Virus record (IMG/VR): IMGVR_UViG_3300017963_000286
Coordinates: 1-63,440 of that record
DNA: 63,440 bases
From: a virus
Taxonomy: Duplodnaviria; Caudoviricetes
Strand: one strand, 5' to 3'
Part shown: positions 5,615-58,797 of the stretch, piece after piece
Position numbering within the stretch: the stretch's first letter is position 1
How the letters are laid out: every line of letters begins with the position of its first letter
Program-made: the position numbers and the translations under genes
Notes under the pieces: model-generated
The model's input: the letters and a program-made list of their open reading frames with translations, nothing else
Told to the model about the DNA's origin: nothing
The model's database searches: none

Positions 5615-5630
5615 GCGAACGCGCGTTCAC
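5615..5630. repeat. dispersed palindrome copy GCGAACGCGCGTTCAC
   Basis: Overlaps the CHAP gene stop; 40 nt upstream of the next start. Confidence 0.9.
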
Positions 5631-6268
5631 GTGGCGGGCCGAATGCCCCAAGGTCTTAAGAATCCCTTGACTCTCATCGTACCCGAATCGTTGATCCCCC
5701 GCACGCGGCGGTGAACCCCATCCCCCTCGCGGACCACCGATCGGCCATCGCTCGTGTTCCCTTCGATGGTCTCGAACTTACCGGGGGATAATACGCGCGC
5801 GACGATCCCGGCATGTCCCATAGCCGTCGGCTTGCCGTTCTTGAAGTGCTGCCAAATGATCAAATCTCCCGACCGCACATCGAGCGCCTGGATCCTGGCC
5901 GGCATGAGCGTTCGATTCCAGCACGTCATGACGTGCTCCGTTTTGAAAAGCCACGTCTCCGGTCCGTCGACCGCCTTGTCGACCGCTTCAATACAATAGA
6001 AGACAAACGCCAAGCACCACGGCTCACCAACCGCTCGCCCGTCGACCGCCTTCTGAAAGGCTTCGACTTCTGGACCGCGATTTGACCCCTTTTCGCGGAC
6101 CCCAACCCAGTGGGACGCCTCCGCGACAAGCGCCTTCATCTTGTCGTCGATCGTGCGCAGCGTCTGCCTCTTAGATTCTAAGTCTTGGGACTTGTTTTGG
6201 GACCTACTATAAGGCGCCCATCGAAGCTCGTCACGTGTTGGCTCTTTGGCCTTCTTGCTCCGAGTCAT
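5627..6268 (-). CDS. CHAP-domain peptidoglycan hydrolase (endolysin candidate)
   Basis: PWCLAFV (catalytic Cys), GHAGIV (His), TIEGNT. Confidence 0.85.
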   Translation of the reverse strand: MTRSKKAKEPTRDELRWAPYSRSQNKSQDLESKRQTLRTIDDKMKALVAEASHWVGVREKGSNRGPEVEAFQKAVDGRAVGEPWCLAFVFYCIEAVDKAVDGPETWLFKTEHVMTCWNRTLMPARIQALDVRSGDLIIWQHFKNGKPTAMGHAGIVARVLSPGKFETIEGNTSDGRSVVREGDGVHRRVRGINDSGTMRVKGFLRPWGIRPAT

Positions 6269-6289
6269 GGGCGCCTCCGTGTGAGGGGA

Positions 6290-6898
6290 TCAGCGCGGTC
6301 GACCTACCAGGATCTTGGCGTGCTTCGAGCCGGCGATCTCGCGCTCATACCAGCCATCGTAACCGGGGTAGTGCGGGTCGGCGCCGATCCAGCGGACCCT
6401 TTTGCCGAGGACGCGCTCGACCTCGGCGTGGTCGCCGACGAATGGGACTGAATAGCGCGTGATGAGGACATGGGCGAGAGCGCCGGAAACCTCGGAGTAA
6501 TTCCCGGCCTTGTTGAGAAGCTCGACGGCGCGGTCGAACATCGCCGCCTTCGCGGTCGACGACCCGTCCGTGGCGAAGCCGGTCATCTTGCGACCGCGCG
6601 CCGTCGTCTTGCCGAAGATCGTCAGGTCGGGATCCGGATCGGCGTCGACATCGACGATCTTCCAGAAGTCGGAATCACCGGGGATGTCGTCGGCGTTGCG
6701 GACGTTGGCGTGACCGCCGATCTTGGCGTAAGACGCCGCAACGAGATCGTAGAGCTCGTCGGTCACGTCGCGGTTTTTGGGATCGCGCAGCGCAGCGAAA
6801 TCGCCCTGGCCAAGGGTGTGGAACCTCCCTTTGCCAGGGCTCACGTCAGCGTAAACGCCCTCGATCAGACCGAGGGCTGCAGCAGCTGCAAAACGCAT
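6290..6898 (-). CDS. hypothetical protein with AALGLIE leader, probable internal head protein
   Basis: Start MRFAAAAALGLIEG after SD GAGGAG; leader shared with 32615-33004. Confidence 0.65.
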   Translation of the reverse strand: MRFAAAAALGLIEGVYADVSPGKGRFHTLGQGDFAALRDPKNRDVTDELYDLVAASYAKIGGHANVRNADDIPGDSDFWKIVDVDADPDPDLTIFGKTTARGRKMTGFATDGSSTAKAAMFDRAVELLNKAGNYSEVSGALAHVLITRYSVPFVGDHAEVERVLGKRVRWIGADPHYPGYDGWYEREIAGSKHAKILVGRPR

Positions 6899-6911
6899 CG
6901 AGATGATCTCC

Positions 6912-7517
6912 TCAGTTGTTCCGCGACTTGGCGCCACTCTTGATAAGCTTCGAAAGCTTCACAAGGTACTCCTTACCCATGTCAGACGTGTTGGAGTCCC
7001 ACAGCCAATCAGTGGCCGAGCTGTCGTAACCGAGCGCCGTCATCTCTTTGACCGCATCGCGCACAACCTGGCCAGCGTTCTCGTTGGCCTTCTGGACGCG
7101 GATCACGATATCGAGGGCTTTCATGATCGTGTTTTTGTCGGCGACTTCGGCGGGCGCCGATTTCTTGGGCTTGCCTCTCCCTTTCGGAGAGATTTTCGCG
7201 ACGTAGCGCGCATAATCGTACCCCTGCGTGTCGACGAGGTAAGCCTCCGCACCTACCGTCACGATGCAAAGGTATCCGGAACTTTCTGCCGCCCTAGCCA
7301 TCTCGGGATTCTTGTCCATGGGACTTGGCTTGCCGCGAACAACCGGCAGGCCCTTGATGATGCTCACGACGCTGAACGGCATCGAAGCAAGCGGAACCTC
7401 ATCCCATGAGTCTGGCTTCACTGTAAATTTGACTGCGCCGCGCACAGCGTCGGCATCCACCCTGTCGATGGCCTCAATGACCCCGTAACCAAGAGCTTCA
7501 GCTATGATCCTCTTCAT
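6912..7517 (-). CDS. hypothetical protein, probable internal head protein
   Basis: Leader MKRIIAEALGYGVIEA; coupled ORF. Confidence 0.6.
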   Translation of the reverse strand: MKRIIAEALGYGVIEAIDRVDADAVRGAVKFTVKPDSWDEVPLASMPFSVVSIIKGLPVVRGKPSPMDKNPEMARAAESSGYLCIVTVGAEAYLVDTQGYDYARYVAKISPKGRGKPKKSAPAEVADKNTIMKALDIVIRVQKANENAGQVVRDAVKEMTALGYDSSATDWLWDSNTSDMGKEYLVKLSKLIKSGAKSRNN

Positions 7518-7548
7518 TTATCCACCCTCTTTTCGAGATTGTTTACGG

Positions 7549-8910
7549 CTAAAGTCCGCTGAGCGACCGCGCCAGCGCGGTTATCTCGCGGTCCTCGCCG
7601 AGACCAAAGCAACGCTTGATCTCTTCTTCGGTCGGCTCATCAGACGCGGCGTCGACGGGTGCCTGGTCCTGACTGGACCCTGGGAGTTTGCGAATCCATG
7701 CTGTCGCCTGCTCGAGGGCGTCGCCTGCGCCGGTCGAATCGCCCGAGGACAGGCGCAACAACGCGCCAGACACCATCTGGAGAACCGTACCCATGTCGGG
7801 GTCCTCGGCCTTGGTCGCGTCCATCGAAGCCTTGGCCATATCCTGCGCTGCCTTCTCGACAGCCGCAGACGAATCCTTGCTTTCAGTCACCGCTCTCCGC
7901 GACCGCGCCTCGTCGATCCCGGGCACCACAAAATATCGCGTCGTCAGTTTCTTTTCGTTCTTCAATGCCGACGACGTCCTGTAGTAGAAGTCGGAACCCG
8001 CGATGAATCCAGGGATAGTCATCGGATACATGCTGTACTTATCCCGGACGACGATCGTGCGAGTAGCTTCCTTGCCTGCGCGAGACGCCTTGTCGAACTC
8101 GGCCTTCGGCACTTCCTTGGAGGCGGCGGCGCCCTCAACAATTGCGCCGGTTTTGGGTCGAGATGACTCGTCCATAGAAACCGGCCCGAATTCGACTCTA
8201 CTATTCTCTGATTGCTGCCGGATATTTGTGTATCCCGCCGGCTTCAGGACCTTGTCTACCAAGGATTTCATCATTTTGATCTTTTTTGACTGATCATATG
8301 GGGACACCACGCCATATGCCGTGAAATAGTCTTCGTTCTTCATAGGGGCGCCGAAACTGACGATGAACTTGTCACCGTTATCTAGCGGCATCGTCAGGTC
8401 GTATGTGGCGCCCTTTTTCCTTTTGGACTTGAACCCAAATTTCTTGAGCAATGGAAGCATCTTTGACAGCGCACTATCCAGTGCAGCGATGTCGTAAACA
8501 CCTTCGGATATGACGCGCCCGCGATGATTGATCGACTCGTCCTGCTCTTCATCTTCGTCGGCATCTAGTTCCGACTCGAAATCTCGCGAAGTGTATAGCT
8601 CGCCGTTGCTTGGGATCACGCGCGACTTCTTCAGCATCCATTCCAGTCCCTGGATGTCACGCTCATTTCTCATGTGCCCGTCTTCGACCTCGGGGACCTC
8701 CCCGGTCTCTTCGTCGCTTCTGATCTCGTAGACAGTTTCGCCATCTTCGTTACGGACATCCGCGTAGAATTCACCGCGCTCGTTCTTGTTAATGTAATAG
8801 CCGAAAATTGGCTTTTTGTTTTTCGCCTCAGTAATCGGCTCGGCGCCTTGCAATACGCCTTCCAGTAGCTCGACCTCAGACCGAATGCTGCCGCCGCTGA
8901 TGTGACGCAT
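7549..8910 (-). CDS. multidomain hypothetical protein with MRHISGGSI leader
   Basis: Leader shared with 8938-9360; repeated (I/V)xE-(A/G/S) sites between domains. Confidence 0.7.
   Translation of the reverse strand: MRHISGGSIRSEVELLEGVLQGAEPITEAKNKKPIFGYYINKNERGEFYADVRNEDGETVYEIRSDEETGEVPEVEDGHMRNERDIQGLEWMLKKSRVIPSNGELYTSRDFESELDADEDEEQDESINHRGRVISEGVYDIAALDSALSKMLPLLKKFGFKSKRKKGATYDLTMPLDNGDKFIVSFGAPMKNEDYFTAYGVVSPYDQSKKIKMMKSLVDKVLKPAGYTNIRQQSENSRVEFGPVSMDESSRPKTGAIVEGAAASKEVPKAEFDKASRAGKEATRTIVVRDKYSMYPMTIPGFIAGSDFYYRTSSALKNEKKLTTRYFVVPGIDEARSRRAVTESKDSSAAVEKAAQDMAKASMDATKAEDPDMGTVLQMVSGALLRLSSGDSTGAGDALEQATAWIRKLPGSSQDQAPVDAASDEPTEEEIKRCFGLGEDREITALARSLSGL
8883..8910 (-). repeat. 28-bp direct repeat copy 1, encodes MRHISGGSI
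   Basis: gaatgctgccgccgctgatgtgacgcat, one mismatch to 9333-9360. Confidence 0.9.
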
Positions 8911-9399: not shown

Positions 9400-9415
9400 G
9401 CGAACGCGCATTCGC
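9400..9415. repeat. dispersed palindrome variant GCGAACGCGCATTCGC
   Basis: One mismatch; intergenic, 40 nt upstream of start 9360. Confidence 0.7.
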
Positions 9416-9426
9416 CCCGGTGGTGA

Positions 9427-10356
9427 TCAGTAGTCGGTCGGCACATCGGCGATGGCATAGCCCTCATCGGACCCGCCGCGCTCGCGCCGCTCGGCCGCCT
9501 CTTTCTGCTCTTCCAGGATCTCGCGCCGCGCTTCCATAATCGCCTGGCGCGGCGAGGCGCCATGGGCGACCACCAATGCGACCACGTCACGGAGCGTCCC
9601 AAACCCGGCGCCTTTAGTGTTGCGCGCCATCGCCTCACAGATGTGATCTGGAATGCGAGCGCCTGCCACGCCCTTGATGTAGGAGTAGCGCTGGTTCAGG
9701 TCCGGCATGGGGCAGTGGATCTTCTCCTCAAAGCGCCCCTTGCGGCGCAGCTTCATCGGCAGCGCCTTCAGATCGTTGACGGTCGCAAGGAAGAGAACAT
9801 GCTGCGGTGCATCCACGCCATCAAGCATCTGGTTCATCCGTTGCGTGCCGCCGTACTTCACAAGCTCGTCAAAATCTTCAAGCACGACGACCACGTCACG
9901 GCGCGCGTCAGACTGCCGGAAGGTCTTCAACGATCTGGTGATCGTCTGTGGATCATAGGCGTAAAAAACCACCTTTCCCTGATCCGCCCACCGCTCGGCC
10001 TCCTCGCGCACCATCGTCGACTTGCCGGACCCAGGAGGTCCATGAAGGACGATCCCACGCTTGTGGAGGATTCCGGATTTCGCATATCGGTCTCTGGCAG
10101 CGAAAAATGAATCTACCGACTCACGAAGCGCGTCGTATGCGCCCCCCGTCATCTCCACGGGGTCGTCGCAGTTGTACTCGAGCTGCTTTAGCCTCGGAAC
10201 GCGCCCCTCCTCGAGCGAATCCCACAGCGTATAAACGCCGGGCTCAACTCCCATCTTGAACCGATGCCCGTGCGCCGGCCTCTGGATCCTTACCTCCAAA
10301 ATGCTTCGAAGGTCTTCGTAGTCCATCGGCTCAACACGATCAAATGGCTCTTTCAT
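9427..10356 (-). CDS. AAA+ ATPase (single domain, classic AAA clade)
   Basis: Walker A GPPGSGKS, Walker B VVVLEDFDE, SRH-like ATVN...RRKGRFE. Confidence 0.9.
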   Translation of the reverse strand: MKEPFDRVEPMDYEDLRSILEVRIQRPAHGHRFKMGVEPGVYTLWDSLEEGRVPRLKQLEYNCDDPVEMTGGAYDALRESVDSFFAARDRYAKSGILHKRGIVLHGPPGSGKSTMVREEAERWADQGKVVFYAYDPQTITRSLKTFRQSDARRDVVVVLEDFDELVKYGGTQRMNQMLDGVDAPQHVLFLATVNDLKALPMKLRRKGRFEEKIHCPMPDLNQRYSYIKGVAGARIPDHICEAMARNTKGAGFGTLRDVVALVVAHGASPRQAIMEARREILEEQKEAAERRERGGSDEGYAIADVPTDY

Positions 10357-10476: not shown

Positions 10477-12309
10477 CTAGACCGCCGTGGGGAGGCTGGC
10501 TCTAGGTTTGAAGACGACCCTGGTCTCCAGAAAGTCCGACGGATGAATCTGCGATCTCTTGGCGTGGAAGGTGTCAGCAGAAACCTCCAAACCGAGCCCC
10601 GAAAGATACGCGACTACGTCGTCCGCCATCATGTAGTTCGTCTGCTCGACGCGGAGATTTTTACAGAAAATGACGCCGAACTTGGTCGTTCGTGCGGCAA
10701 CGAAGCGAAGTACCGGGTAGATCAGCGATTCCATGAAATCGGCATAACCCGAGAAGTAGTGAGGCTGACCTGGGTCATCTGAGTAAAACTCTTTGACCCA
10801 GTACGGCGGACTCGTCATGACGGCCTCGAACGATTCCGGAATTCCGCTGATCGCCCCGGCCGCGACATGAGCCGCATTTGCATGAATCACCTTGGCGTTC
10901 TCAGCACGCTCGCCGAGCATGTCGATCCATTTACGCAATTCGACGATGAGCGATCGATTGAGGTCGACCCCGATGTAGCGACCCGAGCATGCCAGCGTCC
11001 CAGTAAGGCGAGCGCCCCATCCCGCAAAAGGATCAAAAACGGTCCATCCCGGCTCGAATCCCATCGCTTTCAGTGTCTCGATCGCAAGGCGCACTGGGAA
11101 CCACGAGACCGTTCCGACCCGAAAGTTGCTTCTCGCTGCCTTCACCGCAGTCTTGACGCTAGCCTCTGTGCCATCAGTAACGATGGAATTAGCTCGCATA
11201 AACTCCCCAGGCGACACCTTCATGTCGTAGCGCGCCTCAAGAAAAGATCGGATCGTCAATTTCAAGGCCCAGTCGACGTCACGATTCCTTCCAGCGTCGA
11301 GCGCGGCCAGCACTTTGGCGGGATCAACCTCGACCAGAGAGATGTTCCGCGACCGCATCATGTGGTCCTTGCACAAAGACCGCGCATATGACTCTCGACC
11401 GCAGATCAAACAGAGAGAATCGACCGTCGATGACGCCTGGCCGTCATCCGTCCGAAACAAGGTTAGGCGGGACGACTCGTACTCGCGAAACTTCCGATCG
11501 CAGCGCATCCCCTCGCTGTCGGCATAGATGAGGTCAAGCCACCGAATCGAGTTTTCACGGTTGGTAAACCGGATTTCGGTCTTGACCCCCGTGGGCCGGA
11601 TCGTGAATTCCCGACCCTCGACCATTCCAGTCATCCTCGTCACGTCAGCGCCGACCGCTCGAATCAGAATCGGAGCCTTCATGCCCAGGAATGCCCGGCC
11701 GTCATTCATTCCGATATGGCCGTCGGTGTCCCAGAGTCCGCGCAGAAGGTGCGGCCTGAATTCCGCTGGCAGATCAGGGTAGGCGAGATTTACTGACTTC
11801 TTTCCAGACACGCCGCCCATCTTCCGACTGAACCATCCGGCGACCTCCACGCTACTAAAGTGGGCGCGATGGCCTCCGGCGATGAGGGTAATCGGAACGG
11901 ATGGCATGATCATGTCGCGCACGCGCTCTGTGAGATCCCGATCCCCCGAAACGAAAAAGCACCGCGCCGCGACGCGATTGCCCGCCTTGGTGACCGCCTG
12001 CTGCGCCCTGACATGGCCGTCGCCCATCATGGCTCCGAGAAGCCAAGCTTTCTGCGGAGTCCAAGCGTCGCTCATGTCTAAGGCGATGGCATGACGCCTG
12101 TTCGAGAGATCTGCTCCCTCGCGCTTCGCCTTGCGCCTCCACCGCATATAGCAGTTTCTGCAAAGGCCGCGGCGCAAGGTCGCCGACGGCGTTGAGCATT
12201 CGGAGCACGTAACTGCGACGTCATGCATTGGCTTTGTCTCCTCCATGTTTCGGTCGTTTTGCTTGGAGGAGATTGCCCGATCAGGCGCGTAACGTCCACC
12301 TCTTTTCAA
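10477..12309 (-). CDS. fusion of Zn finger, double LAGLIDADG endonuclease and amino-type DNA methyltransferase-like domain
   Basis: CSEC..CRNC; AWLLGAMMGDG and LLRGLWDTDG; FDPFAGWG (motif I) then TSPPY (motif IV). True start may be near 12246. Confidence 0.8.
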   Translation of the reverse strand: MKRGGRYAPDRAISSKQNDRNMEETKPMHDVAVTCSECSTPSATLRRGLCRNCYMRWRRKAKREGADLSNRRHAIALDMSDAWTPQKAWLLGAMMGDGHVRAQQAVTKAGNRVAARCFFVSGDRDLTERVRDMIMPSVPITLIAGGHRAHFSSVEVAGWFSRKMGGVSGKKSVNLAYPDLPAEFRPHLLRGLWDTDGHIGMNDGRAFLGMKAPILIRAVGADVTRMTGMVEGREFTIRPTGVKTEIRFTNRENSIRWLDLIYADSEGMRCDRKFREYESSRLTLFRTDDGQASSTVDSLCLICGRESYARSLCKDHMMRSRNISLVEVDPAKVLAALDAGRNRDVDWALKLTIRSFLEARYDMKVSPGEFMRANSIVTDGTEASVKTAVKAARSNFRVGTVSWFPVRLAIETLKAMGFEPGWTVFDPFAGWGARLTGTLACSGRYIGVDLNRSLIVELRKWIDMLGERAENAKVIHANAAHVAAGAISGIPESFEAVMTSPPYWVKEFYSDDPGQPHYFSGYADFMESLIYPVLRFVAARTTKFGVIFCKNLRVEQTNYMMADDVVAYLSGLGLEVSADTFHAKRSQIHPSDFLETRVVFKPRASLPTAV

Positions 12310-44834: not shown

Positions 44835-44933
44835 CCAGCGCCGCCGTCACTGGATCAGCCCCTAGGTAACGAAGCACGATCCAGTCGTTCTTGATGGCGA
44901 CCAAATATGTCCAAATCCTCTTCATGAGTCGCC

Positions 44934-47247: not shown

Positions 47248-47276
47248 AGTTATTTGGCCACAGCGGGTCGTGTCGA

Positions 47277-47828: not shown

Positions 47829-47840
47829 AATCCCTCCGTG

Positions 47841-48724: not shown

Positions 48725-49009
48725 TCACCGCTTCCTCCATTTGATAAGACCGTTTTCCCGCGCCCACACGATGTATGGCAGCTGCTCGCCGTAGGTATCG
48801 TAGAACCCCCGACACATCACATTCCCCCACTCGTGACAGGTGAAGTGCCTACCGCTGGCCAAAGCCGCAAGCGCCTTACGCTCACCGTAATCCCACGGGA
48901 CATGAGGGCGAGCGCCGAAAAGACATCGACCGCACGACCGCTCACACACGTTCAGGCCATCGTTGGGGGCCTCGGGGCGCGCCTCGACAGGGCTAAGCTC
49001 GTCACCCAC
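48725..49009 (-). CDS. small Cys/His protein
   Basis: CGRCLF...FTCHE...CRGF. Confidence 0.55.
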   Translation of the reverse strand: MGDELSPVEARPEAPNDGLNVCERSCGRCLFGARPHVPWDYGERKALAALASGRHFTCHEWGNVMCRGFYDTYGEQLPYIVWARENGLIKWRKR

Positions 49010-49876: not shown

Positions 49877-50032
49877 TCATTTGCGCTTCGCTGATCGAGG
49901 CAGGAGCGGTCTGACGTAGCGTCTAACTGGCTCGCGCTCGCCGCCGCACTGGCAGACGCCGCAGGTGCGGCACTTGTCGCAGCCCTTGCATATCTCACAG
50001 CAGTACTGGCGGAAGGTCGGCGGGAGAGTCAC
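49877..50032 (-). CDS. 51-aa Cys-rich peptide (MTLPPTFRQYCCEICKGCDKCRTCGVCQCGG...)
   Basis: Below the ORF-track cutoff; GTGA overlap with an upstream stop; 8 Cys. Confidence 0.5.
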   Translation of the reverse strand: MTLPPTFRQYCCEICKGCDKCRTCGVCQCGGEREPVRRYVRPLLPRSAKRK

Positions 50033-50268
50033 GGGCGATCAGGACCATGCTCGGGGCGCCATTTGTCAGCCCGTTTGACTGCAATCACTTCCTCTTCCTC
50101 TTCCTTTGACGGCGGCGGCACGCCTTCGCGTCGATGCACGACACCGGGGACCGATGATGAATCGATCCCTCTATATTCAACTCGCCGGGTGGGCGAGTGC
50201 ATCCGCACCGAACGCAAACCTTGTCCGGCCAAAGTATCCCGTGGTCCACGTTAACGCTATGGCTCACT

Positions 50269-50571
50269 TCACCAACTCCGCCGATTAATAGCCGACTCGA
50301 GAAGGACGAGGCACGAGGTCGCGACCTTTTGAACCTCAACCCTCAAGCGCTCAACCTCACAGATGAGCTCGGTCACGTCCTCGCGGGCATTAGCGACGAA
50401 GGCCGCGTTCTCGTGCATCCCGGCGTAATGTGTCGTCCGCATCAAAATACCACCATCGTCGTTCATGATATACGGAACGTCCATCGTCGAGGCCGGCTCA
50501 CCGACATGCCACGGGCCGGCCGTCGCGTTCGCGCATCGCATCTTGATTTCGTTCAAGCGATTAGGATTCAT
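50269..50571 (-). CDS. Ead/Ea22-like phage protein
   Basis: ATAGPW...NAAFVANAREDV..LI.EVERLR. Confidence 0.65.
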   Translation of the reverse strand: MNPNRLNEIKMRCANATAGPWHVGEPASTMDVPYIMNDDGGILMRTTHYAGMHENAAFVANAREDVTELICEVERLRVEVQKVATSCLVLLESAINRRSW

Positions 50572-50906
50572 TCGGCAGCCTCAAAGGTCGAGCCATTCTT
50601 TAGCCGCTCGCGCACAACAGCGCGATAGACCTCGCGCCAGTTTTTGTACCATCGATCCACTAGATCCATGAACTTGTTCATAGGGAGACTGGCCGCTGCC
50701 TCGTTTTCTCGCTCGATGGCGCCGAGATAGAACCGGCTTGCCGGTCCTTCGATGGCCCACATCAATTCCTCGCGAGAAGGGCTCACCTCGGCGTGCATCT
50801 TGGTGAGCGCCGCGTAGGCGTCGTCAACAAGGCGGTACTTGTCGGCCAGGTCGATAGGGTCACTCATATCGACCGCCCGTCGATGATCGCTAGAAGCCGC
50901 CGACAC
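50568..50906 (-). CDS. hypothetical protein
   Basis: Coupled ORF. Confidence 0.45.
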   Translation of the reverse strand: MSAASSDHRRAVDMSDPIDLADKYRLVDDAYAALTKMHAEVSPSREELMWAIEGPASRFYLGAIERENEAAASLPMNKFMDLVDRWYKNWREVYRAVVRERLKNGSTFEAAE

Positions 50907-51241
50907 TTCACCTCGTCGAACATCGCGATATGCGCCTCGTCTTCGTCGAGCTCAAGGGCCTCGCGCATCCATCGGTACGCCTCCTTGCGCTTCATGCGCC
51001 CGGTCCGCCAAATGGGATCGAAGGCCGCATGACACACCTTGCGAAGCCATCGGAGCTCGCCATTCGCGAGCGATCCGAGCGGCTTGGTCGTGCCGCGATG
51101 CGTCCCCACGTAAGCATTGCAAGTCGGATAGTTGCCGCAGATATAGACAGGGCCATAGCTGACCCCGCCATAAATCACCGCGCTGTCTCTCAGAACAGAA
51201 CGGGCACCGCAATATCCGCAGATGGGGGCTTCGTCGCTCAT
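50864..51241 (-). CDS. DUF3268 zinc-finger protein
   Basis: CGYCG...CNAYVGTH...PLGSLAN..LR..R...HAAFDPIW. Confidence 0.8.
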   Translation of the reverse strand: MSDEAPICGYCGARSVLRDSAVIYGGVSYGPVYICGNYPTCNAYVGTHRGTTKPLGSLANGELRWLRKVCHAAFDPIWRTGRMKRKEAYRWMREALELDEDEAHIAMFDEVKCRRLLAIIDGRSI

Positions 51242-51482
51242 TCGCCGACCTCCTCCACCTCCTTGGGCTCCTCGATCCGGTCGGCAATGATCCTGAAGAT
51301 CGCAACGGCAAGGTCGGCGTCGACGCTTCTGCGCACGAGATATTCAATCCCCGAGGCAAGAACGGCGCGATCCTCGAGCCAGTCCGCGCTCGGGATCAGC
51401 AGGCGCTGGCTCGCCATCCACTTCGTGATCCGGAGCGAGTAGTCCGCGATCACGCCTCGGTCCTCGATTGTAAAGGAACGCT

Positions 51483-51860
51483 TCACCATTGCGTCACCTC
51501 CACCCACGCTTTCGCGTCCCATCGCCGTCGACCGAGCCCGACGATCTCTTGGGGGTCGATGAGCGTCACTTTGCGAAACCGCCGCTCTTGAGCGTGGGAC
51601 GTACGCAAAGGCGCGTGCGGGTCTTCATTGCCGGAAAGCGACTGCCAATCCCCAGGCTCGACTTCGAAGAAGGAATAGATTCGTTCCGGGTGGGAGGCGG
51701 CAGGAGGCAGCCGATCATCAACCTGAATGTCGAGAGCGCCGGCAATCCTTGCCAACGCCTTGATCTCGTCCTTGCTCCCAACGAAAACCCGAATACCGTC
51801 CGCGAACGCGCGTTCGCCATCAATCAAATGCTCCGTCTCAGTCACTGGCACCTCGTGCAC
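51483..51860 (-). CDS. hypothetical protein
   Basis: Coupled ORF. Confidence 0.5.
   Translation of the reverse strand: MHEVPVTETEHLIDGERAFADGIRVFVGSKDEIKALARIAGALDIQVDDRLPPAASHPERIYSFFEVEPGDWQSLSGNEDPHAPLRTSHAQERRFRKVTLIDPQEIVGLGRRRWDAKAWVEVTQW
51802..51817. repeat. dispersed palindrome copy GCGAACGCGCGTTCGC (perfect)
   Basis: In CDS (ERAF), about 43 nt after the start. Confidence 0.9.
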
Positions 51861-52105
51861 TCTTCAATTGTGGGTTTGTTATGATCGCCACGGTATCTCC
51901 ACCATTGCGCTAACTCAATGCCAATCAAAATAAGCCAGTTGGCGGCGAGGGGCCACAGAGCGTAGTGCCAGGTGTAGACCAGCTTCACGACGCATCCGAC
52001 CAGGCCCAACAGGTGGAGGAGGCCGCGATCCTTGACCAGGAAGCTGGCAAGGAAGATCGACGTGCCCGTCCATCCCAGGGCAGTCCACATGGCTTCCGTC
52101 ATCAT
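51842..52105 (-). CDS. small 3-TM membrane protein (YgjV/PQ-loop-like)
   Basis: Three hydrophobic segments. Confidence 0.55.
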   Translation of the reverse strand: MMTEAMWTALGWTGTSIFLASFLVKDRGLLHLLGLVGCVVKLVYTWHYALWPLAANWLILIGIELAQWWRYRGDHNKPTIEECTRCQ

Positions 52106-52680
52106 TTGGCAAACACCACCACCCAAAAATTATTGAGGACCGCTCCTCCCATGACGCGATTGTTTGGCTCGAGCATCGCCGCCCGGTGGGGCGGACTGTT
52201 CAGCCAGCCGATGACCGCTGACTCTGGGCTCCGATGCCCGCAGGCGAGGATCTCGCTCCCGGCGCCAATCCGGAATCCACAGGTCGACGCGCGCTGGACA
52301 AAGTTCGACCCGTCCGACCCCGTGTGGCTACACGACCTCGAGGCGCCCACGTCCGAAGCGTGGCGGTCCGCCGCGCAGGCCAGCTGGTCGTCGATGGGAA
52401 TCAGAGGCAGGGCATGCTTCGCGCGCTCGAGGTTGATCGCCACATAGAGGCGCTCCAGATCTCCGAGGGGCACTGGGACATCCGGCTCCGGCGATTGATC
52501 GCCGTCACCCGGTTCGCCGCCTTCCGAGGGCGGAGCCTGGCCCTCAGGCTGGGGCTGCGGTTCGCCGCCCCGGTCGTCGCTACAAGCGGTCACGATGAAC
52601 GCGGCCAAGAGTAAGTAGATGAATCTATCGAAAACGATAGATCTGCCTACCGCCAAAAGCGCCCTCCCCTTTAGCATCAC
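52102..52680 (-). CDS. CAP/SCP-domain lipoprotein
   Basis: Lipobox-like IVTAC; AADRHASD, SHTGSDG, WLNSPPHRAAML. Confidence 0.85.
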   Translation of the reverse strand: MMLKGRALLAVGRSIVFDRFIYLLLAAFIVTACSDDRGGEPQPQPEGQAPPSEGGEPGDGDQSPEPDVPVPLGDLERLYVAINLERAKHALPLIPIDDQLACAADRHASDVGASRSCSHTGSDGSNFVQRASTCGFRIGAGSEILACGHRSPESAVIGWLNSPPHRAAMLEPNNRVMGGAVLNNFWVVVFAK

Positions 52681-52995
52681 CGTTCCCCCTTTCCCTCACG
52701 TCCTAAGCAACCCCACCATGGCCGACACTATGACGGCCAAGGATAAAGTCTGGTTTGTGTCCGCGCCCAACGATCGCGCGAAGTGCGCCGCTCCGAACAC
52801 GGCGGCGGCCGAGAAGAGGATCGCGATGGTCCGGCCAATCAAATAGAGGACCGTCGGTCGAGCGTAGGTGTCGGTTGTTCTGTGCGCCGAGGGCGGGGGC
52901 GACGATAGCTGCATGGACGGGCTCCTCCAGCGAACTAGCTGCGCGCTCGGAGCTAGGAGCCCGGGGCGCCTAGTCCGTTGGGAGAATCATAGGGA

Positions 52996-53295
52996 TCACT
53001 GCTTCGAGAGAAAGAGGGCGAAGGCTTCGTCGAATTCTTCTTGTCGGAGATCGCGTCCGGTCGCTAACCACCGATCAATCACTGAGCGGATCAGAGCTAT
53101 GGCGCCCAGGCTCCGGTTGAAGCCTTCAAGGCGGAAGAGAACTCGGCGTTTCTTGAAGTCGGACCCGAAGATTTGCACCTGATAGTTGCCGATCTCAGAG
53201 GTGCCGCTGAGGTCATTATATATAAGGAAGCGCGCGATGTTGTAGCGGGCCTTGCGAGAGCCGGACGGGAGAACCCTAATGGTCAGCTCAAGCAT
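52996..53295 (-). CDS. hypothetical protein
   Basis: Plausible phage ORF. Confidence 0.5.
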   Translation of the reverse strand: MLELTIRVLPSGSRKARYNIARFLIYNDLSGTSEIGNYQVQIFGSDFKKRRVLFRLEGFNRSLGAIALIRSVIDRWLATGRDLRQEEFDEAFALFLSKQ

Positions 53296-53774
53296 AGGCC
53301 ACTCTAGTCATCCAAGGAGTAGCTGCCTTGAGCCCTTACTCTCCTGGACCTTTGGGGATGGCGCGGCTTCGTCGCCGTTGAGCGGCTTGCCTTCCGCTGC
53401 CTTGGTCGTTTGCTTTGCGATGGCTTCGCCTTCGTCTTTTGGATCTTTGTCATCCATGACTTCGCACAAGCGCTTGGAATCCATGGTGTCCTCCGGACTT
53501 GTTGTCGGCGCCATCACAAACTTTCAGGGAAAGCGGTCCTGCAATGATACCACGCCTCGGCTTTCCGACACCAAGAAAAACGCCCGTTGTTTTCTTGAAA
53601 ACATCAAGAGAAACAAGGGCGTGTAACAAGGGACGCGGCCGACCCTCTGGGCGGGAATCTAATGTGCGGCTCGTGAATTTCACGTGGCCGTGGGTGAGAT
53701 TTCAAGGGGCGGGTAGACTAGGACGGCTTTCCGATCGACGGGAAGGAAGGGTCGTGCCGCGATGTTTGTCGTGG

Positions 53775-54191
53775 TTAGGTCTCCTGGATCGACACGGCAG
53801 CGGAGCGATCGAGACGAGCGCGCTCAACGGGCGTTAAGCGCCGAGCTGCGGCCCACCCCCTATCGACGAACCATTGATACAGCTTCCGGACCGCCGACAG
53901 GCGGATGGCGATAAACTGGGCTCCAGGGGGGTAATCATTGCGCTCGACGAAGAGGGTCATGTGCTGAGCAATGATGCTGCCCTCGCGCATCTGCCCGATC
54001 CCAACGCTGAGGTTTTTGATCGTCGTCACGTAGAGGGGGATGAAGGCGCGACGGATTCGGTCGTACTCGCCTCGGCGCTCTTCGTCTGTCCAGCGTTCTG
54101 CTGAGGGGACCTGGACGACCGGCGATCCCTTCCGGACATTGGTTTGAGCGCTGCTGAACATTGTTGATTCTCCCGTGGCTAGGCCGCGCAT
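53775..54191 (-). CDS. hypothetical protein
   Basis: Plausible ORF. Confidence 0.45.
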   Translation of the reverse strand: MRGLATGESTMFSSAQTNVRKGSPVVQVPSAERWTDEERRGEYDRIRRAFIPLYVTTIKNLSVGIGQMREGSIIAQHMTLFVERNDYPPGAQFIAIRLSAVRKLYQWFVDRGWAAARRLTPVERARLDRSAAVSIQET

Positions 54192-54370
54192 CTTGCCCTA
54201 AACGGGGAAAAAAGAAAGCCGAAAATCGGTGAGTTGAAGCGAAAATCAAGGATCACGATCGTCGTCGTCATCCCGTGTGATAACGATAAATACCAATATC
54301 ATTAAGAGCATAGCCGACATGCTGGCGATTTGATGCCAGGCAATGTCGAGAATGAGCTCACCTGCATTTG

Positions 54371-55999
54371 TCAAACCACCTCGGCCTCCCCGGTCGCGAC
54401 CGGCGCCCAGGGGACCAGCCCTGCCTCGATCGCCTCGCTGCGATAGTTCCCGGACGCATCTTTGATCCCGCTCAGTCGCATAAAAGCCTCCCTTACTTGC
54501 GCAGGGACCACGGCGTTACCAAGCGCCCGAATCTGCTCCACTCGAGAAGGGAACCCTGTCACTGTGCGCGGCACATCAGGCCACTCACTCCACCACACGT
54601 CACCTACGGCAGCTGCGACGACAAGCCAGTCCTGGTGCGCTGACCCAAGAGAATCCCAGATGTTTTCAAGAGGCGTTGGGTGCTTAGCGAACGAAGAAGC
54701 AAAAGCATCGTCGAGGCGATGCGCGGGGCTCATCGACTGAATCGCGTGGTGCGACCGTGCGTAAGTAAAGTATGCCACAATTTGCACAGCGATGCCAAAC
54801 GGAAGCGAGCCCTCCTGATACCCCCCGTCAAGCTTGACCCCTGACAAGCTTGACCCCTGACAGCGGTGCTCATGAACAGCCCTAAGAATCGCCTCAGGAG
54901 AAAGGGTGGCTACGACTTCTTGATCTTGCGAACGGCCTTCTTCGCCGCCAGCCAAGCGTTCCATCCCATCGTGTCGAGCTCGGTCCAGCCCGCCGGAAAG
55001 TTCATGAGCCAGCAGACGAACGTCGGATTGAGTACCCTCGGCTTCTTCTGAAACTCGCCCGGCGGCAGGGGCCACGGGTCCTTCTTCAGGACGTGCTCGT
55101 TGAGCGGCGCCCCGCCCTGCCTCGAGTAGCTCTCTTCGGTCGCCGTCACTCCCGAGCGGTGATCGCGCGAGGTCGGGGTCGGGAAGATCTCCCCCGCTGC
55201 CCTGGCGGCATCGGTCAGCGTCGTCCCCGGATGCATGATTCCCGTCGTCGTCGTGTGTCGACCCGAACTCTTGGCGTCGGTCGAGGTCGGGGTCGGCCAC
55301 ATGCCGATGCCGGTCGACGTCACCGTGCAAGGTATGGGCGAGTATTCGACGCGCGAGTTCGGCCAGAGATCCTTTGACGCCATCGTGTCGAGGGAGACGA
55401 CCTGGCGCTGCGTGCCCTTCCTGATCCCGTTGCCGCCCGTCCCGTAGCGAGCGGCGGTCGGCGTCGGAAGCAGCGGCTGGCCCGATTCGGTGTGCGTGGG
55501 CAAGTAAGAACCACCTGTCACGGATATGCGGCGATGCCACATCTGCAGCGGCCAAACAATCCCATCGACAGTCATACCCGAGCGCGGCCAGCTCTTTGAC
55601 CACTCGCTCTCCGCCACGGGTCCTAATCGCCGCGACATTTTCAAGGAAGACGAAGCTCGGCCTGACTTCGTCAACGAGCCTGAGTATCTCGAAAAAAAGC
55701 CTGCTTCGCTTCCCTTCCAAACCAGCTTGAACGCCTGCGGAGGAGATATCTTGACATGGAAATCCCCCAAAGATGATCTCAGGCCGCTCTGGCAACTCTC
55801 TGCCTTGGAGTGTGGAGACGTCATCCCAGATTGGCGCGGGGTCGAGCCTGCCATCGCGCATTCTCGACAAAAGCACCTGTCTGCAGAATGAGTCGATGTC
55901 GCAATATGCGACCGTTCGGACCCATGGCCGCAATGCGACAGCGATTCCGCCGATCCCCGAAAAGAGGTCCAACCCGGGCATCCTTCGGGAAATATCCAT
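54371..55999 (-). CDS. C5 cytosine DNA methyltransferase, main frame (motifs I-VIII and X)
   Basis: LDLFSGIGG, GGFPCQ, FLENV, PHIRDRWF, RALGNAVVP. Confidence 0.9.
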   Translation of the reverse strand: MDISRRMPGLDLFSGIGGIAVALRPWVRTVAYCDIDSFCRQVLLSRMRDGRLDPAPIWDDVSTLQGRELPERPEIIFGGFPCQDISSAGVQAGLEGKRSRLFFEILRLVDEVRPSFVFLENVAAIRTRGGERVVKELAALGYDCRWDCLAAADVASPHIRDRWFLLAHAHRIGPAAASDADRRSLRDGRQRDQEGHAAPGRLPRHDGVKGSLAELARRILAHTLHGDVDRHRHVADPDLDRRQEFGSTHDDDGNHASGDDADRCRQGSGGDLPDPDLARSPLGSDGDRRELLEAGRGAAQRARPEEGPVAPAAGRVSEEAEGTQSDVRLLAHELSGGLDRARHDGMERLAGGEEGRSQDQEVVATLSPEAILRAVHEHRCQGSSLSGVKLDGGYQEGSLPFGIAVQIVAYFTYARSHHAIQSMSPAHRLDDAFASSFAKHPTPLENIWDSLGSAHQDWLVVAAAVGDVWWSEWPDVPRTVTGFPSRVEQIRALGNAVVPAQVREAFMRLSGIKDASGNYRSEAIEAGLVPWAPVATGEAEVV

Positions 56000-56004
56000 G
56001 TCAT
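54910..56004 (-). CDS. nested alternative-frame polypeptide with PTP repeats and a motif IX-like segment (beta-subunit candidate)
   Basis: Same-strand overlapping ORF; four PT(P/H)T repeats; LNPTFVCWLMNFPAGWT. Confidence 0.65.
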   Translation of the reverse strand: MTWIFPEGCPGWTSFRGSAESLSHCGHGSERSHIATSTHSADRCFCRECAMAGSTPRQSGMTSPHSKAESCQSGLRSSLGDFHVKISPPQAFKLVWKGSEAGFFSRYSGSLTKSGRASSSLKMSRRLGPVAESEWSKSWPRSGMTVDGIVWPLQMWHRRISVTGGSYLPTHTESGQPLLPTPTAARYGTGGNGIRKGTQRQVVSLDTMASKDLWPNSRVEYSPIPCTVTSTGIGMWPTPTSTDAKSSGRHTTTTGIMHPGTTLTDAARAAGEIFPTPTSRDHRSGVTATEESYSRQGGAPLNEHVLKKDPWPLPPGEFQKKPRVLNPTFVCWLMNFPAGWTELDTMGWNAWLAAKKAVRKIKKS

Positions 56005-56633
56005 TGAACCCCTCTCGACGCGTGATGGACCGCGATGCGGCGCAGCCAATCGATCCATTTATCAAGCGGCATGTCCCGCTTCAGAAAATTACAGGTCTTG
56101 CAGCAAGGTACGCAGTTTCCTTCGACGTAACCCAAAGCGTTGTCTTGCCTGTCAATTCCGTTTATTCCCTCTCGCGCGCCGCAATATTCGCAAGCTCCTC
56201 GCACTAGCTCAGCGAAAAGATCAAACGAAAGGTCAAATGACCGTCCGCGCTTGGGAGCCTCTTTGCGATACTGCCGAAATCGCAAACGTACCTTAGCTTC
56301 GTCGCCAAGAAGTTTTCGCGGATTTGGTAAGCAGCCGCACGACCTTGTATTACCTGATCTGAGATTGGTGCTTCGAATGGCCGCCCTGTTGCCGCAATCA
56401 CAAGCGCACAGCCATTTGAACACTCCCGATGAGTCGGGAGCAGACGGCTCTAATGCTGTCAATCGCCCAAATCTCTGCCCTGTGATGTCTATATACGGCT
56501 TGACCTTCCTGGGCTCTCGTTGGCGATCCTTGTTAGCGGCACGATAAGCAGCTCGCGTATCCTTAACACGGTCCTTATTCCGCTCCCTCCACGAGCGCAC
56601 GGCAGCCGCTTTATCCTCTCTCGTTTTCGTCAA
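56001..56633 (-). CDS. HNH homing endonuclease-like protein
   Basis: GQRFGRLT...WLCACDCG...SCGC; CEYCG..GIDRQDN..GY..GNCVPCC..CN. Confidence 0.85.
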   Translation of the reverse strand: MTKTREDKAAAVRSWRERNKDRVKDTRAAYRAANKDRQREPRKVKPYIDITGQRFGRLTALEPSAPDSSGVFKWLCACDCGNRAAIRSTNLRSGNTRSCGCLPNPRKLLGDEAKVRLRFRQYRKEAPKRGRSFDLSFDLFAELVRGACEYCGAREGINGIDRQDNALGYVEGNCVPCCKTCNFLKRDMPLDKWIDWLRRIAVHHASRGVQ

Positions 56634-56658
56634 CTTACAACCGCTCCCGTCTCAGCGT

Positions 56659-56674
56659 GCGAACGCGCGTTCAC
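56659..56674. repeat. dispersed palindrome copy GCGAACGCGCGTTCAC
   Basis: Intergenic between the tRNA 3' end and the HNH start. Confidence 0.9.
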
Positions 56675-56680
56675 ATGGAG

Positions 56681-56766
56681 AGATGCGGGCTGGATTCGAA
56701 CCAGCGATAGAGCAAGCGCTCGCGGGCTTTGCAAACCCGCCCCTTCGGCCGCTCGGGCACCGCATC
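56681..56766 (-). tRNA. tRNA-Cys(GCA) with long variable arm (86 nt)
   Basis: Acceptor GATGCGG/CCGCATC, U73, D-arm CCC..GGG, anticodon arm CGGGT-TTGCAAA-GCCCG, T-arm GCTGG-TTCGAAT-CCAGC. Confidence 0.88.
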
Positions 56767-56779
56767 AGCCATCAGTCAT

Positions 56780-57892
56780 TCAGAGCTCAGTCGAATCTTC
56801 GTCGCGACTCCTTAGATAAGCCCTGATCTGATCACGCAGACACAGCATCCGATCGCTGCCGTCGTCGTTGAGCATCCAAAGGCCCTGCCAGTCGCGAATC
56901 AAGTCGGTCGTCGGATCGAACTGGTTTTCGGTCAGTATCTTCCAGCGGTCCCAATAGAACCGTTTTCGCTTGCTCCCATGGAACGCGTGGGTGATGACCC
57001 CGGGAACGCATCCGACGTTTCGACGAATGTATCGCTCGGCTCGAGCCTGCCACTTCAGCACAGTGGCGCGATAGGCGGGCGTCACATCCGTCGGCATCGC
57101 CTCGTCGCCTCGGCCGAGAAGAGCCAGAGCCATATGATGGTCCCCAGCCCCAAGAATGCCGGTATCGAGCAGGCCGCCCACTGCATTGAACGCTTCGCGA
57201 CGAGCGGCCCATCCGTAGCCGGGATGCCAAAAAACTCTGTTGCCGGGGAGGCCGGCGCCCAGCCGATAGGGGCCGTTGGTCTCGCCTTTTATGTGCGACG
57301 ACGTGAACCTCTGCGGATTTAGCTTTCCATCCACAACCAAAGGCGGGATCTCAGGATTGTTAAACTGGTTCAAATAGCAGTGGTTCATCCCGATGTTGGT
57401 GCCAATGACATCGAGCGCGGGGGGAGGCCCGATGTCTATGGCCTGTGAGAACATCTGAACGAAGTCGTAATGCTGCAGCTGATGAATCGTCTCCTGAACC
57501 CAGTCGGGTCGAACGAAGTCGATGTCAGCATCGAGCCACGCCACGTACTTCCAATCAGGGATTGGGATCCGTGATACGCCGATATTTATCGCGCATTCCT
57601 TGTGCCACATCTCCTCGCGCGTGCGCAGCTGCACGTGCCAAGGATTGCCAGCCTCGGTGATCTCAAACGGGCGCTCGCCATACGCGAGCTCGACCGTCAG
57701 CAGCTGGGCGCCGCTCTCCTCTACGTGCTTGGCAAACTTCCGGTAGAGGTTGTAACGCGTGCGGTAGCGGACCGGGTTCGACACCATCGTGACCACGACA
57801 AACTTACTCAGGTCGATCGGCGTCAGGTCACTGCGATGGATGCTGCGGTACCCAAGGTCATGGAAATGACCCGGAGAGGTAGGCGTAGCCAT
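56780..57892 (-). CDS. GT-A fold glycosyltransferase-like protein
   Basis: WHKECAINIG, YVAWLDADIDF (DxD), GAGDHHMA, HAFHG. Confidence 0.7.
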   Translation of the reverse strand: MATPTSPGHFHDLGYRSIHRSDLTPIDLSKFVVVTMVSNPVRYRTRYNLYRKFAKHVEESGAQLLTVELAYGERPFEITEAGNPWHVQLRTREEMWHKECAINIGVSRIPIPDWKYVAWLDADIDFVRPDWVQETIHQLQHYDFVQMFSQAIDIGPPPALDVIGTNIGMNHCYLNQFNNPEIPPLVVDGKLNPQRFTSSHIKGETNGPYRLGAGLPGNRVFWHPGYGWAARREAFNAVGGLLDTGILGAGDHHMALALLGRGDEAMPTDVTPAYRATVLKWQARAERYIRRNVGCVPGVITHAFHGSKRKRFYWDRWKILTENQFDPTTDLIRDWQGLWMLNDDGSDRMLCLRDQIRAYLRSRDEDSTEL

Positions 57893-57949
57893 TCAGGAGA
57901 GCCCTCGGTCAGGGATTGTTTGCCCAAGAATAGCACGCCGCCGGATGAG

Positions 57950-58489
57950 CTATCCAGGGATAGAAGGCTTATTTTTGAGGAGCATCCCAGCGATGTCCGC
58001 CAGCTGCACCTCGCCATAGAACTCGACGCCGCCGTCGTGCTCACCCGTATATGCGTCGTAGCTCGACCAGTAGCCTAGAGCCTCGATCCAGCGAAACGAC
58101 CGGATGGGAAGCTCGGTCTGGCGCGGCGCGGCCAAAGGGTTTTTGGCGAGTTCGGCGTACTCGTCACGCTTGAGAGTCGCCTCCTTGATCAGCTCCTCGA
58201 CGGCGCCCCTGATCCAGTCGGTACCCATCTCGCGCTCTTCGTACTCGACGCCCGTCGAGTAGCCATAATCGCAACGGCCTTCGTGAATGAGGCTGTAGGT
58301 GATCGCGCAGGCGTCCTCCTCAAAGACGACATCGTCGGCCAGGTCGTCATCAAGAACGTCCTTCGGGATGTCCTTGGTGACGTCTGCGTAGTCGCCGTTC
58401 CAAAGCATGCTCTCTAGCTCGAGAGCGCTGGAGGTGTCGCCGGCATAGAAAAAATGAGCGGTGAACTCTACAAGTGAACAGATTTTCAT
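57950..58489 (-). CDS. acidic hypothetical protein, probable paralog of 59758-60294
   Basis: STGVE / LADIAGML motifs. Confidence 0.55.
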   Translation of the reverse strand: MKICSLVEFTAHFFYAGDTSSALELESMLWNGDYADVTKDIPKDVLDDDLADDVVFEEDACAITYSLIHEGRCDYGYSTGVEYEEREMGTDWIRGAVEELIKEATLKRDEYAELAKNPLAAPRQTELPIRSFRWIEALGYWSSYDAYTGEHDGGVEFYGEVQLADIAGMLLKNKPSIPG

Positions 58490-58773
58490 TCGTCATCCGA
58501 TTTGTCGTCGTCGACCAGGTGAAGGTGACTCTTGGGCCTGACCGACGCAGCCGCGAGATAGCGAAGGCGGCGCGCTCGAGCCTCCTCGGGCGATTCGCGC
58601 GCAAGGTGGTGCATGAGATACAAACGGGCCATCTCCACCAACATGCCGATCAAGGCGAGTATCGCAATCAATCCGAACCCAAACGACACGACAGCCGCGC
58701 CGCCTGGGTCCATCTCGTTGATGACGACGCCCGTTACAGCGACCATGATGATGGGGACGAGCACGGGCGCCAT
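58486..58773 (-). CDS. 2-TM membrane protein
   Basis: Two hydrophobic helices. Confidence 0.5.
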   Translation of the reverse strand: MAPVLVPIIMVAVTGVVINEMDPGGAAVVSFGFGLIAILALIGMLVEMARLYLMHHLARESPEEARARRLRYLAAASVRPKSHLHLVDDDKSDDE

Positions 58774-58781
58774 GATCCCGT

Positions 58782-58797
58782 GCGAACGCGCGTTCAC
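58782..58797. repeat. dispersed palindrome copy GCGAACGCGCGTTCAC
   Basis: Overlaps the stop of 58794-58982 and lies just upstream of the next ATG. Confidence 0.9.

Follow-up and report, generated by a model that had tools for sequence, protein, structure and literature searches.

Why a single 16-bp palindrome, GCGAACGCGCGTTCGC, should recur along a phage genome, both between genes and inside them, is the question raised by the IMG/VR virus record IMGVR_UViG_3300017963_000286. The entire record, 63,440 bp long, forms the window analysed here; it has no end repeats, is rated 31% complete by CheckV, has a G+C content of 58.6%, and carries nearly all of its genes on the minus strand. Genes in this and all other genomes were called as greedy longest open reading frames (ORFs), with no gene finder, and starts are therefore possibly set too far upstream. 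The dispersed palindrome is real and highly non-random: it is enriched, sharply bounded, non-randomly placed and evenly spaced, and differently spelled arrays occur in related phages. From these properties we infer that the palindrome is read by a protein on duplex DNA that would act across the whole genome.

All 11 motif positions given in the first-pass annotation are correct. The 12-bp core, GAACGCGCGTTC, occurs exactly at 5617, 21072, 29919, 38943, 43485, 47443, 51804, 56661, and 58784, and with one mismatch at 9402 and 33077. Over the full 16 positions, the window holds four exact copies, seven copies with one mismatch, none with two or three, and eight with four. Read on the coding (minus) strand, the one-letter variants begin with GTGAAC (three copies), ACGAAC, or GCGAAT (one copy each), or end with GTTCGT or GTGCGC (one copy each). 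The earlier rough estimate of far less than one copy by chance agrees with 100 dinucleotide-preserving shuffles (mean 0.44, largest 3), and also with the codon-preserving control proposed alongside it, in which codon order was shuffled inside the ORF calls and intergenic bases were shuffled as well (mean 0.28 and largest 3 in 300 shuffles, against 11 observed). The first-order Markov expectation for the 16-mer is 0.17 at up to two mismatches, 1.5 at up to three, and 11.7 at up to four, and the eight copies at four mismatches are at chance level. As there are no copies at two or three mismatches, the family is sharply bounded and has no decayed members, an edge that is expected if every position is selected or if the copies are young. 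The symmetry covers all 16 bp, the central GCGC is invariant in 11 of 11 copies, and no conserved sequence is found in the flanks of the 11 window copies beyond the 16 bp.

The placement of the copies was assessed by reading three frames around each of them. Seven copies are intergenic and four lie within ORFs, and because only about 5% of the window is non-coding by the ORF calls, this bias is far from chance (binomial P = 5e-6 at an assumed non-coding share of 8%). Six of the seven intergenic copies overlap, or begin 0–11 nt past, the upstream stop codon or tRNA end, and the next start follows 8–50 nt further on. The same proportion, six of seven, lies closer to the upstream gene end than to the next start, the copy at 9400 being ambiguous. 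The first-pass annotation had tied the motif to start codons; all 11 copies do have a possible start at a distance of no more than about 75 nt, but the tighter rule is proximity to the stop of the upstream gene, and the copy at 47441, included in this count, is in the middle of an ORF beside an in-frame ATG. All seven upstream stops are TGA, which is not significant (P 0.22), as TGA makes up 81% of stops. The overlap of the motif with stop codons is confirmed at 5615 and 58782, and so is its use of different frames within genes, as it is read E-R-A-F at 21070 and 51802 and A-N-A-R-S/A-H at 47441 and 33075. Since the four ORF copies are read in two different frames, selection acts on the nucleotides.

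Among the intergenic copies, those at 5615–5630 and 58782–58797 both read GTGAACGCGCGTTCGC on the minus strand, and in both the upstream TGA forms motif positions 2–4: that of the CHAP-domain gene 5627–6268 in the former, in which the next ATG (5575) lies 39 nt downstream, and that of ORF 58794–58982 in the latter, in which an ATG lies 8 nt downstream. The copy at 9400–9415, GCGAATGCGCGTTCGC on the minus strand with one mismatch, begins 11 nt past the TGA of the AAA-ATPase gene 9427–10356; its mismatch creates an ATG (9411), and another possible ATG is found some 40 nt further on. The perfect copy at 29917–29932 begins 2 nt past the TGA of ORF 29935–30150 and is followed by GGAGG and then by the ATG (29906) of a DUF6527 gene; this copy and the DUF6527 gene stand directly upstream of a methyltransferase cluster (26332–29643, minus strand). 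The copy at 38941–38956, ACGAACGCGCGTTCGC on the minus strand, abuts the TGA of ORF 38957–39295 and is followed by the ribosome-binding site AAGGGAG and an ATG (38917) 23 nt downstream; within 38915–39295, this ORF and the following gene share a frame and are separated only by the TGA that abuts the palindrome. The perfect copy at 43483–43498 lies 38 nt past a TGA, is followed by TTTTTATT, the sole T-run found after a copy, and has an ATG 50 nt downstream. The copy at 56659–56674, also GTGAACGCGCGTTCGC on the minus strand, begins 5 nt past the 3' end of a tRNA-Cys gene (56680–56766, minus strand) and has a TTG start (56633) 25 nt downstream. This 87-nt tRNA-Cys(GCA) was called by ARAGORN and is atypical, as Rfam finds no tRNA there at gathering score.

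The four copies within ORFs lie at different points along their genes. The copy at 21070–21085 (GCGAACGCGCGTTCGT on the minus strand) is at the 5' end of ORF 19977–21140, in its first 20 or so codons and about 40 nt past the stop of the portal gene (21128–22834), and is read C-E-R-A-F-V. The perfect copy at 51802–51817 likewise falls within the first 20 or so codons of ORF 51483–51860, 24 nt past the TGA of ORF 51842–52126, and is read G-E-R-A-F-A. The copy at 33075–33090 (GCGAACGCGCGTGCGC on the minus strand, with an internal mismatch) lies at the 3' end, in the last 30 codons, of the C92 amidase gene 33001–33717, with the next ATG 68 nt on; its altered arm is able to pair with the bases that follow (GTGCGC-ATTG-GCGCAC). 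The perfect copy at 47441–47456 is in the middle of ORF 47277–47828, after a DUF3846 domain (residues 1–93), and is read A-N-A-R-S-H with an in-frame ATG 3 nt upstream. A similar arrangement is found in the related phage G003, in which a palindrome follows a small DUF5661 domain in the middle of ORF 92255–93025 (L059:12255–13025); in the two cases the in-frame ATG stands 3–7 nt before the palindrome, and it looks as if these mid-ORF sites mark a fused gene pair or the use of an internal start.

The intervals between window copies range from 2123 to 11,670 bp, with a coefficient of variation (CV) of 0.54 and a mean density of one copy per 5.8 kb. When compared with random sets of gene starts, this spacing is unusual both in its CV (P 0.02) and in its minimum interval (P 0.011). 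The spacing of about 4–5 kb that had been pointed out between 38.9 and 56.7 kb is borne out by successive intervals of 4542, 3958, 4361, and 4857 bp.

Related phages hold arrays with other spellings. The nearest phages are 58–69% identical to the window phage in the capsid protein, and the window 16-mer has no copy in the six relatives searched (G001–G004, G006, and G007); the CGAA-N-GCG-NN-TTCG form of the word was not found in G001, G002, G004, G006, or G007. The relative G006 (129 kb, 38% G+C, genes on one strand, capsid protein 62–63% identical to that of the window) has the array GTCTAA-N4-TTAGAC, with 9 exact copies and 22 at up to one mismatch, against 0.2 in Markov sequences. The 6+4+6 layout is that of the window, the spelling is different, and there is one copy per 5.2–5.7 kb or so, with most copies overlapping the upstream stop codon or beginning 1–2 nt past it. 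The curated G006 set consists of 24 of the 27 matches at up to two mismatches, a level at which about 5.5 chance matches are expected; the matches at 35381, 66640, and 94179 were removed by eye as chance-like. The G006 array is spaced with a CV of 0.44–0.51 and a minimum interval of 2084 bp (P <= 5e-4; about 1e-4 for the minimum interval), and its evenness persists whether the 22 matches at up to one mismatch or all 27 are taken. No period between 1.5 and 9 kb was significant in a Rayleigh scan (P 0.34, 0.37, and 0.11), so the spacing is even but not phase-locked. The sole site position shared between the two phages is at the portal gene, the stop of which is overlapped by a copy in G006 and precedes the window copy at 21070. 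Site positions are thus weakly conserved, which fits a function resting on the distribution of the sites and not on particular genes.

G003 (157 kb, 100% complete, with terminal repeats and 40% G+C) contains 10 copies of CGAA-N-GCG-NN-TTCG where none is expected, and this word agrees with the window word in 11 of 14 core letters. Most of the G003 copies are inside ORFs. A second word class shares only AGCGATTTCG, and the full set of 17 sites mixes three word classes picked by eye. The G003 array is probably related to that of the window and differs from it in detail. G010 (27 kb) has GCAATTGC five times at intervals of 4.0–4.5 kb, a count that is not significant (P 0.26), and only tandem coding repeats were found in G008 and G009, which are more distant T4-type records.

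The reading to which we give a probability of about one in two is that the palindrome copies form a lattice of duplex-DNA docking sites for a two-fold symmetric, phage-encoded protein that would be dimeric or pseudo-dimeric. Each docking site would offer two 6-bp arms, the centres of which are 10 bp or one helical turn apart, a distance suited to a dimer bound to one face of the helix. Such sites would be kept letter for letter, would be placed in the scarce non-coding DNA, usually in the first bases past a stop codon, and would be written into coding sequence where needed. They would also be spread out, with none closer than about 2 kb and with most segments of 4–9 kb holding one. The predicted reader would act genome-wide rather than as a gene-by-gene operator, and its action could consist of marking, organising, or loading the chromosome, or of punctuating long one-directional transcription units. 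The first-pass annotation had proposed, in general terms, a phage-wide site that acts at the nucleic-acid level and is probably bound by protein, and this remains the best-supported view, but several of the specific analogies and binders offered with it hold up less well.

Several observations weigh against a docking lattice on DNA. An RNA 3'-end element would fit the position after stop codons as well, and this position is partly forced, because a ribosome-binding site needs the final bases before a start. Of the seven non-Watson–Crick arm positions in the window, five can still pair as G.U on the sense strand and one only on the antisense strand, which leans towards RNA; three of these five G.U positions are the same C-to-T change, which creates the TGA stop. 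The G003 copies are oriented with the genes in 10 of 10 cases, an orientation that a symmetric reader leaves unexplained. No repeated inverted repeat is found in the fragments G001 (40 kb) and G002 (56 kb), which are the closest by capsid identity, so the array trait is patchy. The reader itself is a predicted protein. The ParB-like proteins suggested earlier as readers find no support, as no match above cut-off to three ParB-family models (Pfam ParB_N, PF02195; HTH_ParB, PF17762; and KorB, PF08535) is present in the window, G003, or G006, although this absence is not proof for the window phage, as the window represents 31% of its genome.

The features that lean towards RNA bear on a tentative alternative, which we consider unlikely, in which the palindrome acts in the sense transcript as a hairpin with a 6-bp stem and a GCGC loop, found 3'-terminally in the upstream cistron and serving as an exonuclease barrier, a processing mark, or a site for a phage RNA-binding protein. 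Because the genes around the copies share one strand, transcription reads all copies in the same sense, and the location of six of the seven intergenic copies at an upstream stop or tRNA end is the one that a 3'-end element would take. Folding energies are -7.2 kcal/mol for the perfect copy and -4.9 to -5.8 kcal/mol for the sense-strand variants, which keep the hairpin, whereas the antisense form of the GTGAAC variant loses it, and the G003 word, with its uniform orientation along transcription, has a GCGA loop of the GNRA type. Against these points, the z-score relative to shuffles is just -1.1, Rfam 15 gives no match in the window at gathering score, the mid-ORF copy at 47441 has no 3'-end role, and compensatory double changes among copies are absent from every genome examined. 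The fold in G006 is weak (-3.4 kcal/mol, and -1.5 kcal/mol for the common variant), and 13 of the 17 non-Watson–Crick arm positions in G006 destroy the sense-strand RNA pair, only four remaining G.U. The invariant GCGC centre favours a dyad on DNA, because a hairpin loop needs no symmetry.

Two G006 copies, at 32187 and 65899, are located 6–30 nt upstream of GC-rich terminators (GCCGCC...GGCGGC followed by a T-run, at about 32120–32186 and 65760–65898, minus strand). Since these copies precede separate canonical terminators, the G006 palindrome is not itself the terminator, and their position just upstream of real terminators also counts against the hairpin as a 3'-end element. It is scarcely credible that the copies are ordinary intrinsic transcription terminators. 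The window copy at 43483, with the T-run noted above, is detected by a terminator scan, but it is the only one to pass, as the flanking TTT follows just 1 of 11 window copies. In G006, TTT follows on the 3' side of 9 of 24 copies, but AAA on the 5' side is commoner (14 of 24), making the flanks symmetric, a feature that favours a site on DNA. Moreover, the stem is short, and terminators do not need a shared sequence. The sole strong canonical terminator of the window (12345–12314 on the minus strand), a 14-bp stem with a T-run directly 3' of the capsid gene, is unrelated to the palindrome.

The LexA box of the Gram-positive/Actinobacteria type has the consensus CGAAC-N4-GTTCG, and the window word resembles it: CGAAC-GCGC-GTTCG is present in 6 of 11 copies. 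Host LexA had therefore been put forward as a binder, and the copies would then be SOS boxes that couple phage expression to DNA damage. However, none of the 16 positions is free to vary, the N4 centre and the outermost G and C included, and the G006 array has unrelated arms. The copies are located at gene ends and not at promoters, and promoter-like sites are at chance level (5, 2, and 6, against 5.1, 5.9, and 6.8 in shuffles). Genome matches to the 16-mer, among the matches listed, are scattered singles across many phyla. Taken together, these points make LexA a very improbable reader and speak for one that is peculiar to the phage.

The distribution of the word in databases is in keeping with a trait of this lineage. 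In IMG/VR (2.9 million contigs), 44 stretches match the 16-mer exactly, with no more than two of them per contig, and there are at least 120 scattered single matches across many phyla in a one-per-species set of prokaryote genomes; among the 80 genome matches listed, none is a multi-copy genome. The word CGAAATCGATTTCG is present in IMG/VR as a single copy in all but one of 80, among the matches listed. One of the viral contigs that contain the 16-mer is G005 (L068; 51 kb, 61.5% G+C), in which tblastn finds no match to the window proteins. Two features were noted in this contig, at about 4576, 7511–7555, and 11650–11690, and in L069 (about 38121 of G005): a 22-bp palindrome encloses the window 16-mer, and CGCGCGTTCGCGCC half-words are paired about 24 bp apart, an arrangement that resembles a local operator cluster.

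Candidate readers were sought among the proteins encoded by the window. The parts of window proteins described as ParB-like are N-terminal domains of DNA methyltransferases, and ParB-like PHROGs matched them only at E values of about 1e-3 to 1e-4. The methyltransferase cluster 26332–29643 comprises one complete methyltransferase with a ParB-like N-terminal domain, one free-standing N-domain protein, and two genes for catalytic halves. The XRE protein that was named as a candidate binder is a genuine helix-turn-helix protein of 84 aa (42205–42459, minus strand; Pfam HTH_31, E = 2.4e-10, and HTH_3, E = 3.3e-8; transcription-regulator families in PHROGs), but nothing ties it to the motif, and no homologue was found in G001–G003 or G006 by tblastn at E <= 1e-3.

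A further candidate is a 610-aa protein (10477–12309, minus strand) in which a LAGLIDADG domain is fused to an amino-methyltransferase. Of the Pfam models, LAGLIDADG_3 just passes its cut-off of 22.5 bits with a score of 22.6 bits, whereas N6_N4_Mtase, at 24.1 bits, falls short of the required 26.7 bits. Two LAGLIDADG motifs with their acidic residues are kept, together with amino-methyltransferase motifs I and IV, and the GDG, DxDG, FDPFxGWG, and SPPYW motifs are conserved in four of four aligned proteins; no intein splicing domain was detected in the family. The family is small and rare and carries CxxC ribbons, with members in the window, in G006 (L278:46–2247), in G010 (L279:1935–4163), and in P0122, and a large protein search returned three matches. 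The best hit in a PDB sequence search with the first 300 residues has E = 0.67, and an AlphaFold model from the four-sequence alignment is unusable (mean predicted local distance difference test score 42.9).

It is improbable that the palindromes are the long targets of this LAGLIDADG-methyltransferase, in which a homing-endonuclease fold would have been co-opted to direct a methyltransferase, or a nickase, to a 16–22 bp word every few kb. If true, the phage chromosome would carry a “self” mark, or a lattice of nicks, at sparse and even intervals. In favour of this possibility, the gene is located directly 3' of the capsid gene in both phages with stop-codon arrays, the window phage and G006, and is missing from that place in G001 and G002, which have no array. 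BLASTP leaves the N-terminal DNA-reading half unaligned between the window and G006 proteins but aligns the methyltransferase half at 27% identity, a contrast that mirrors how completely the palindrome is respelled between the two phages. However, G003 has an array and no such fusion, only LAGLIDADG domains of the intein type, and G010, the only other IMG/VR contig with the fusion, has no significant array.

A 4-bp centre between symmetric arms is also the layout of dimeric endonuclease targets, and the window encodes both LAGLIDADG and HNH proteins. The copies might thus be recombination or cleavage sites, that is, junctions of cassette exchange or targets of a phage endonuclease of the LAGLIDADG or HNH type. 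The repeats of Cluster O mycobacteriophages have been described as flanking insertions and deletions (PMC4351075). Passive scars, however, would not give even spacing, strict conservation, and copies inside genes, and we consider there to be little chance that such exchange or cleavage accounts for the array. The cassette-exchange form of this idea also draws on the promoter early stem-loops (PeSLs) of T4-type phages, which are described as consisting of a stem-loop, a sigma-70-like -35/-10 promoter, a ribosome-binding site, and a start codon, and as clustering in hyperplastic regions (Comeau et al. 2014, PMC4122927). As conserved intergenic stem-loops of T4-type phages with lineage-specific spelling (PMC4122927), PeSLs resemble the window palindrome. 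In contrast, the window copies are spread evenly, structural genes included, and their stem is not accompanied by a conserved promoter, so they are not PeSLs: the flanks are not conserved, the distance from motif to start varies from 8 to 50 nt, and gaps of 20–50 nt are too short for a promoter.

Among printed cases, a 17-bp dyad repeat found in Cluster O mycobacteriophages, 5'-TGTTCGGNNNCCGAACA, comes closest, by a resemblance in kind and not by homology; Corndog has 34 copies of it, a density of about one every 2 kb (Cresawn et al. 2015, PMC4351075). As described in the section of that paper on repeats, it is, like the window palindrome, a short inverted repeat with invariant arms and many copies per genome, and its copies are found in short intergenic gaps, near the 5' ends of genes, and inside genes, the word being absent from other phages (PMC4351075). 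The window, with 11 copies in 63 kb that each differ by no more than one mismatch in 16 positions, has an inverted repeat of this type. The two differ in their phages (Mycobacterium siphoviruses versus a marine T4-like phage), in layout (7+3+7 versus 6+4+6), and in density (one per 2 kb versus one per 5.8 kb), and even spacing or closeness to stop codons is not discussed in the same section (PMC4351075). Its authors considered the repeats to be probable sites for a dimeric protein with no clear promoter link and left their function unknown (PMC4351075). The window palindrome forms a lineage-specific, evenly spaced array, and its kind already has descriptions in print but no explanation; its mechanism and purpose are put forward here as we infer them. 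A literature search for the exact motif words gave a single, unrelated paper, and a keyword search gave papers on Clusters O and K but no account of such arrays in T4-like phages, which does not prove their absence from print.

Other dispersed sites offer partial likenesses. Cluster A (L5) stoperators are 13-bp asymmetric sites that point along transcription and are recognised by the immunity repressor of temperate phages. They are alike in being many near-identical sites at gene junctions, with a spelling that varies between related phages, but the analogy with stoperators drawn in the first-pass annotation fails on this asymmetry, as the window sites are perfect palindromes. Moreover, stoperator phages are temperate, whereas the window phage is T4-like with no sign of lysogeny noticed, although no search aimed at lysogeny was made. 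Repetitive extragenic palindromic (REP) elements are likewise species-specific palindromes located after stop codons; they are longer and imperfect. A REP system with its associated transposase (RAYT) was set aside, as Y1_Tnp (PF01797) has no match in the window, G003, or G006. KorB of the IncP plasmid RK2 is reported to slide up to 1.5 kb from its loading site (McLean et al. 2025, PMC11790492). The likeness to KorB and its OB sites lies in a dispersed palindromic site and in one protein acting at a distance, and the window palindrome falls within the 13–16 bp range of such dispersed sites. As a working analogy, a reader of the KorB type would make even spacing useful; KorB differs, as described there, in being a CTPase clamp of the ParB family, members of which were not found above cut-off in the window, G003, or G006.

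The phage itself is a distant, marine member of the T4 type. The window encodes a major head protein (phrog_138, E = 1e-70), a prohead protease (phrog_207), and the portal protein at 21128–22834 (phrog_213; Pfam PF07230, T4 Gp20 type). Near-identical DNA was found in runs labelled as sediment and seawater metagenomes, and over 38900–58850 the contigs assembled from three DNA runs are either identical to the window or do not span palindrome sites. Logan contigs, searched with the portal, hold proteins 78% identical to it, a scan of IMG/VR with the single portal protein gave no match, and no phage in the GenBank phage collection is similar to the window at the megablast level. A 1122-aa protein at 22866–26234 (minus strand), with a weak match to the terminase large subunit, carries an intein (Intein_splicing and LAGLIDADG_3), and the portal homologues of relatives are likewise intein-bearing.

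Dispersed dyad repeats in phages have been in print since at least 2015, when those of Cluster O were described (PMC4351075), with neither a reader nor a function. The arrays of the T4-like group add four testable regularities, namely a 6+4+6 layout that is kept while the word is respelled, siting at stop codons, copies in coding sequence, and a minimum distance of about 2 kb. Together, these regularities point to one phage protein that would need to reach the whole chromosome. If such a protein docks at these sites, the arrays would be part of a layer of genome control or organisation in phages that is not yet understood, and the 16-mer is short enough to be used directly as bait for its reader.

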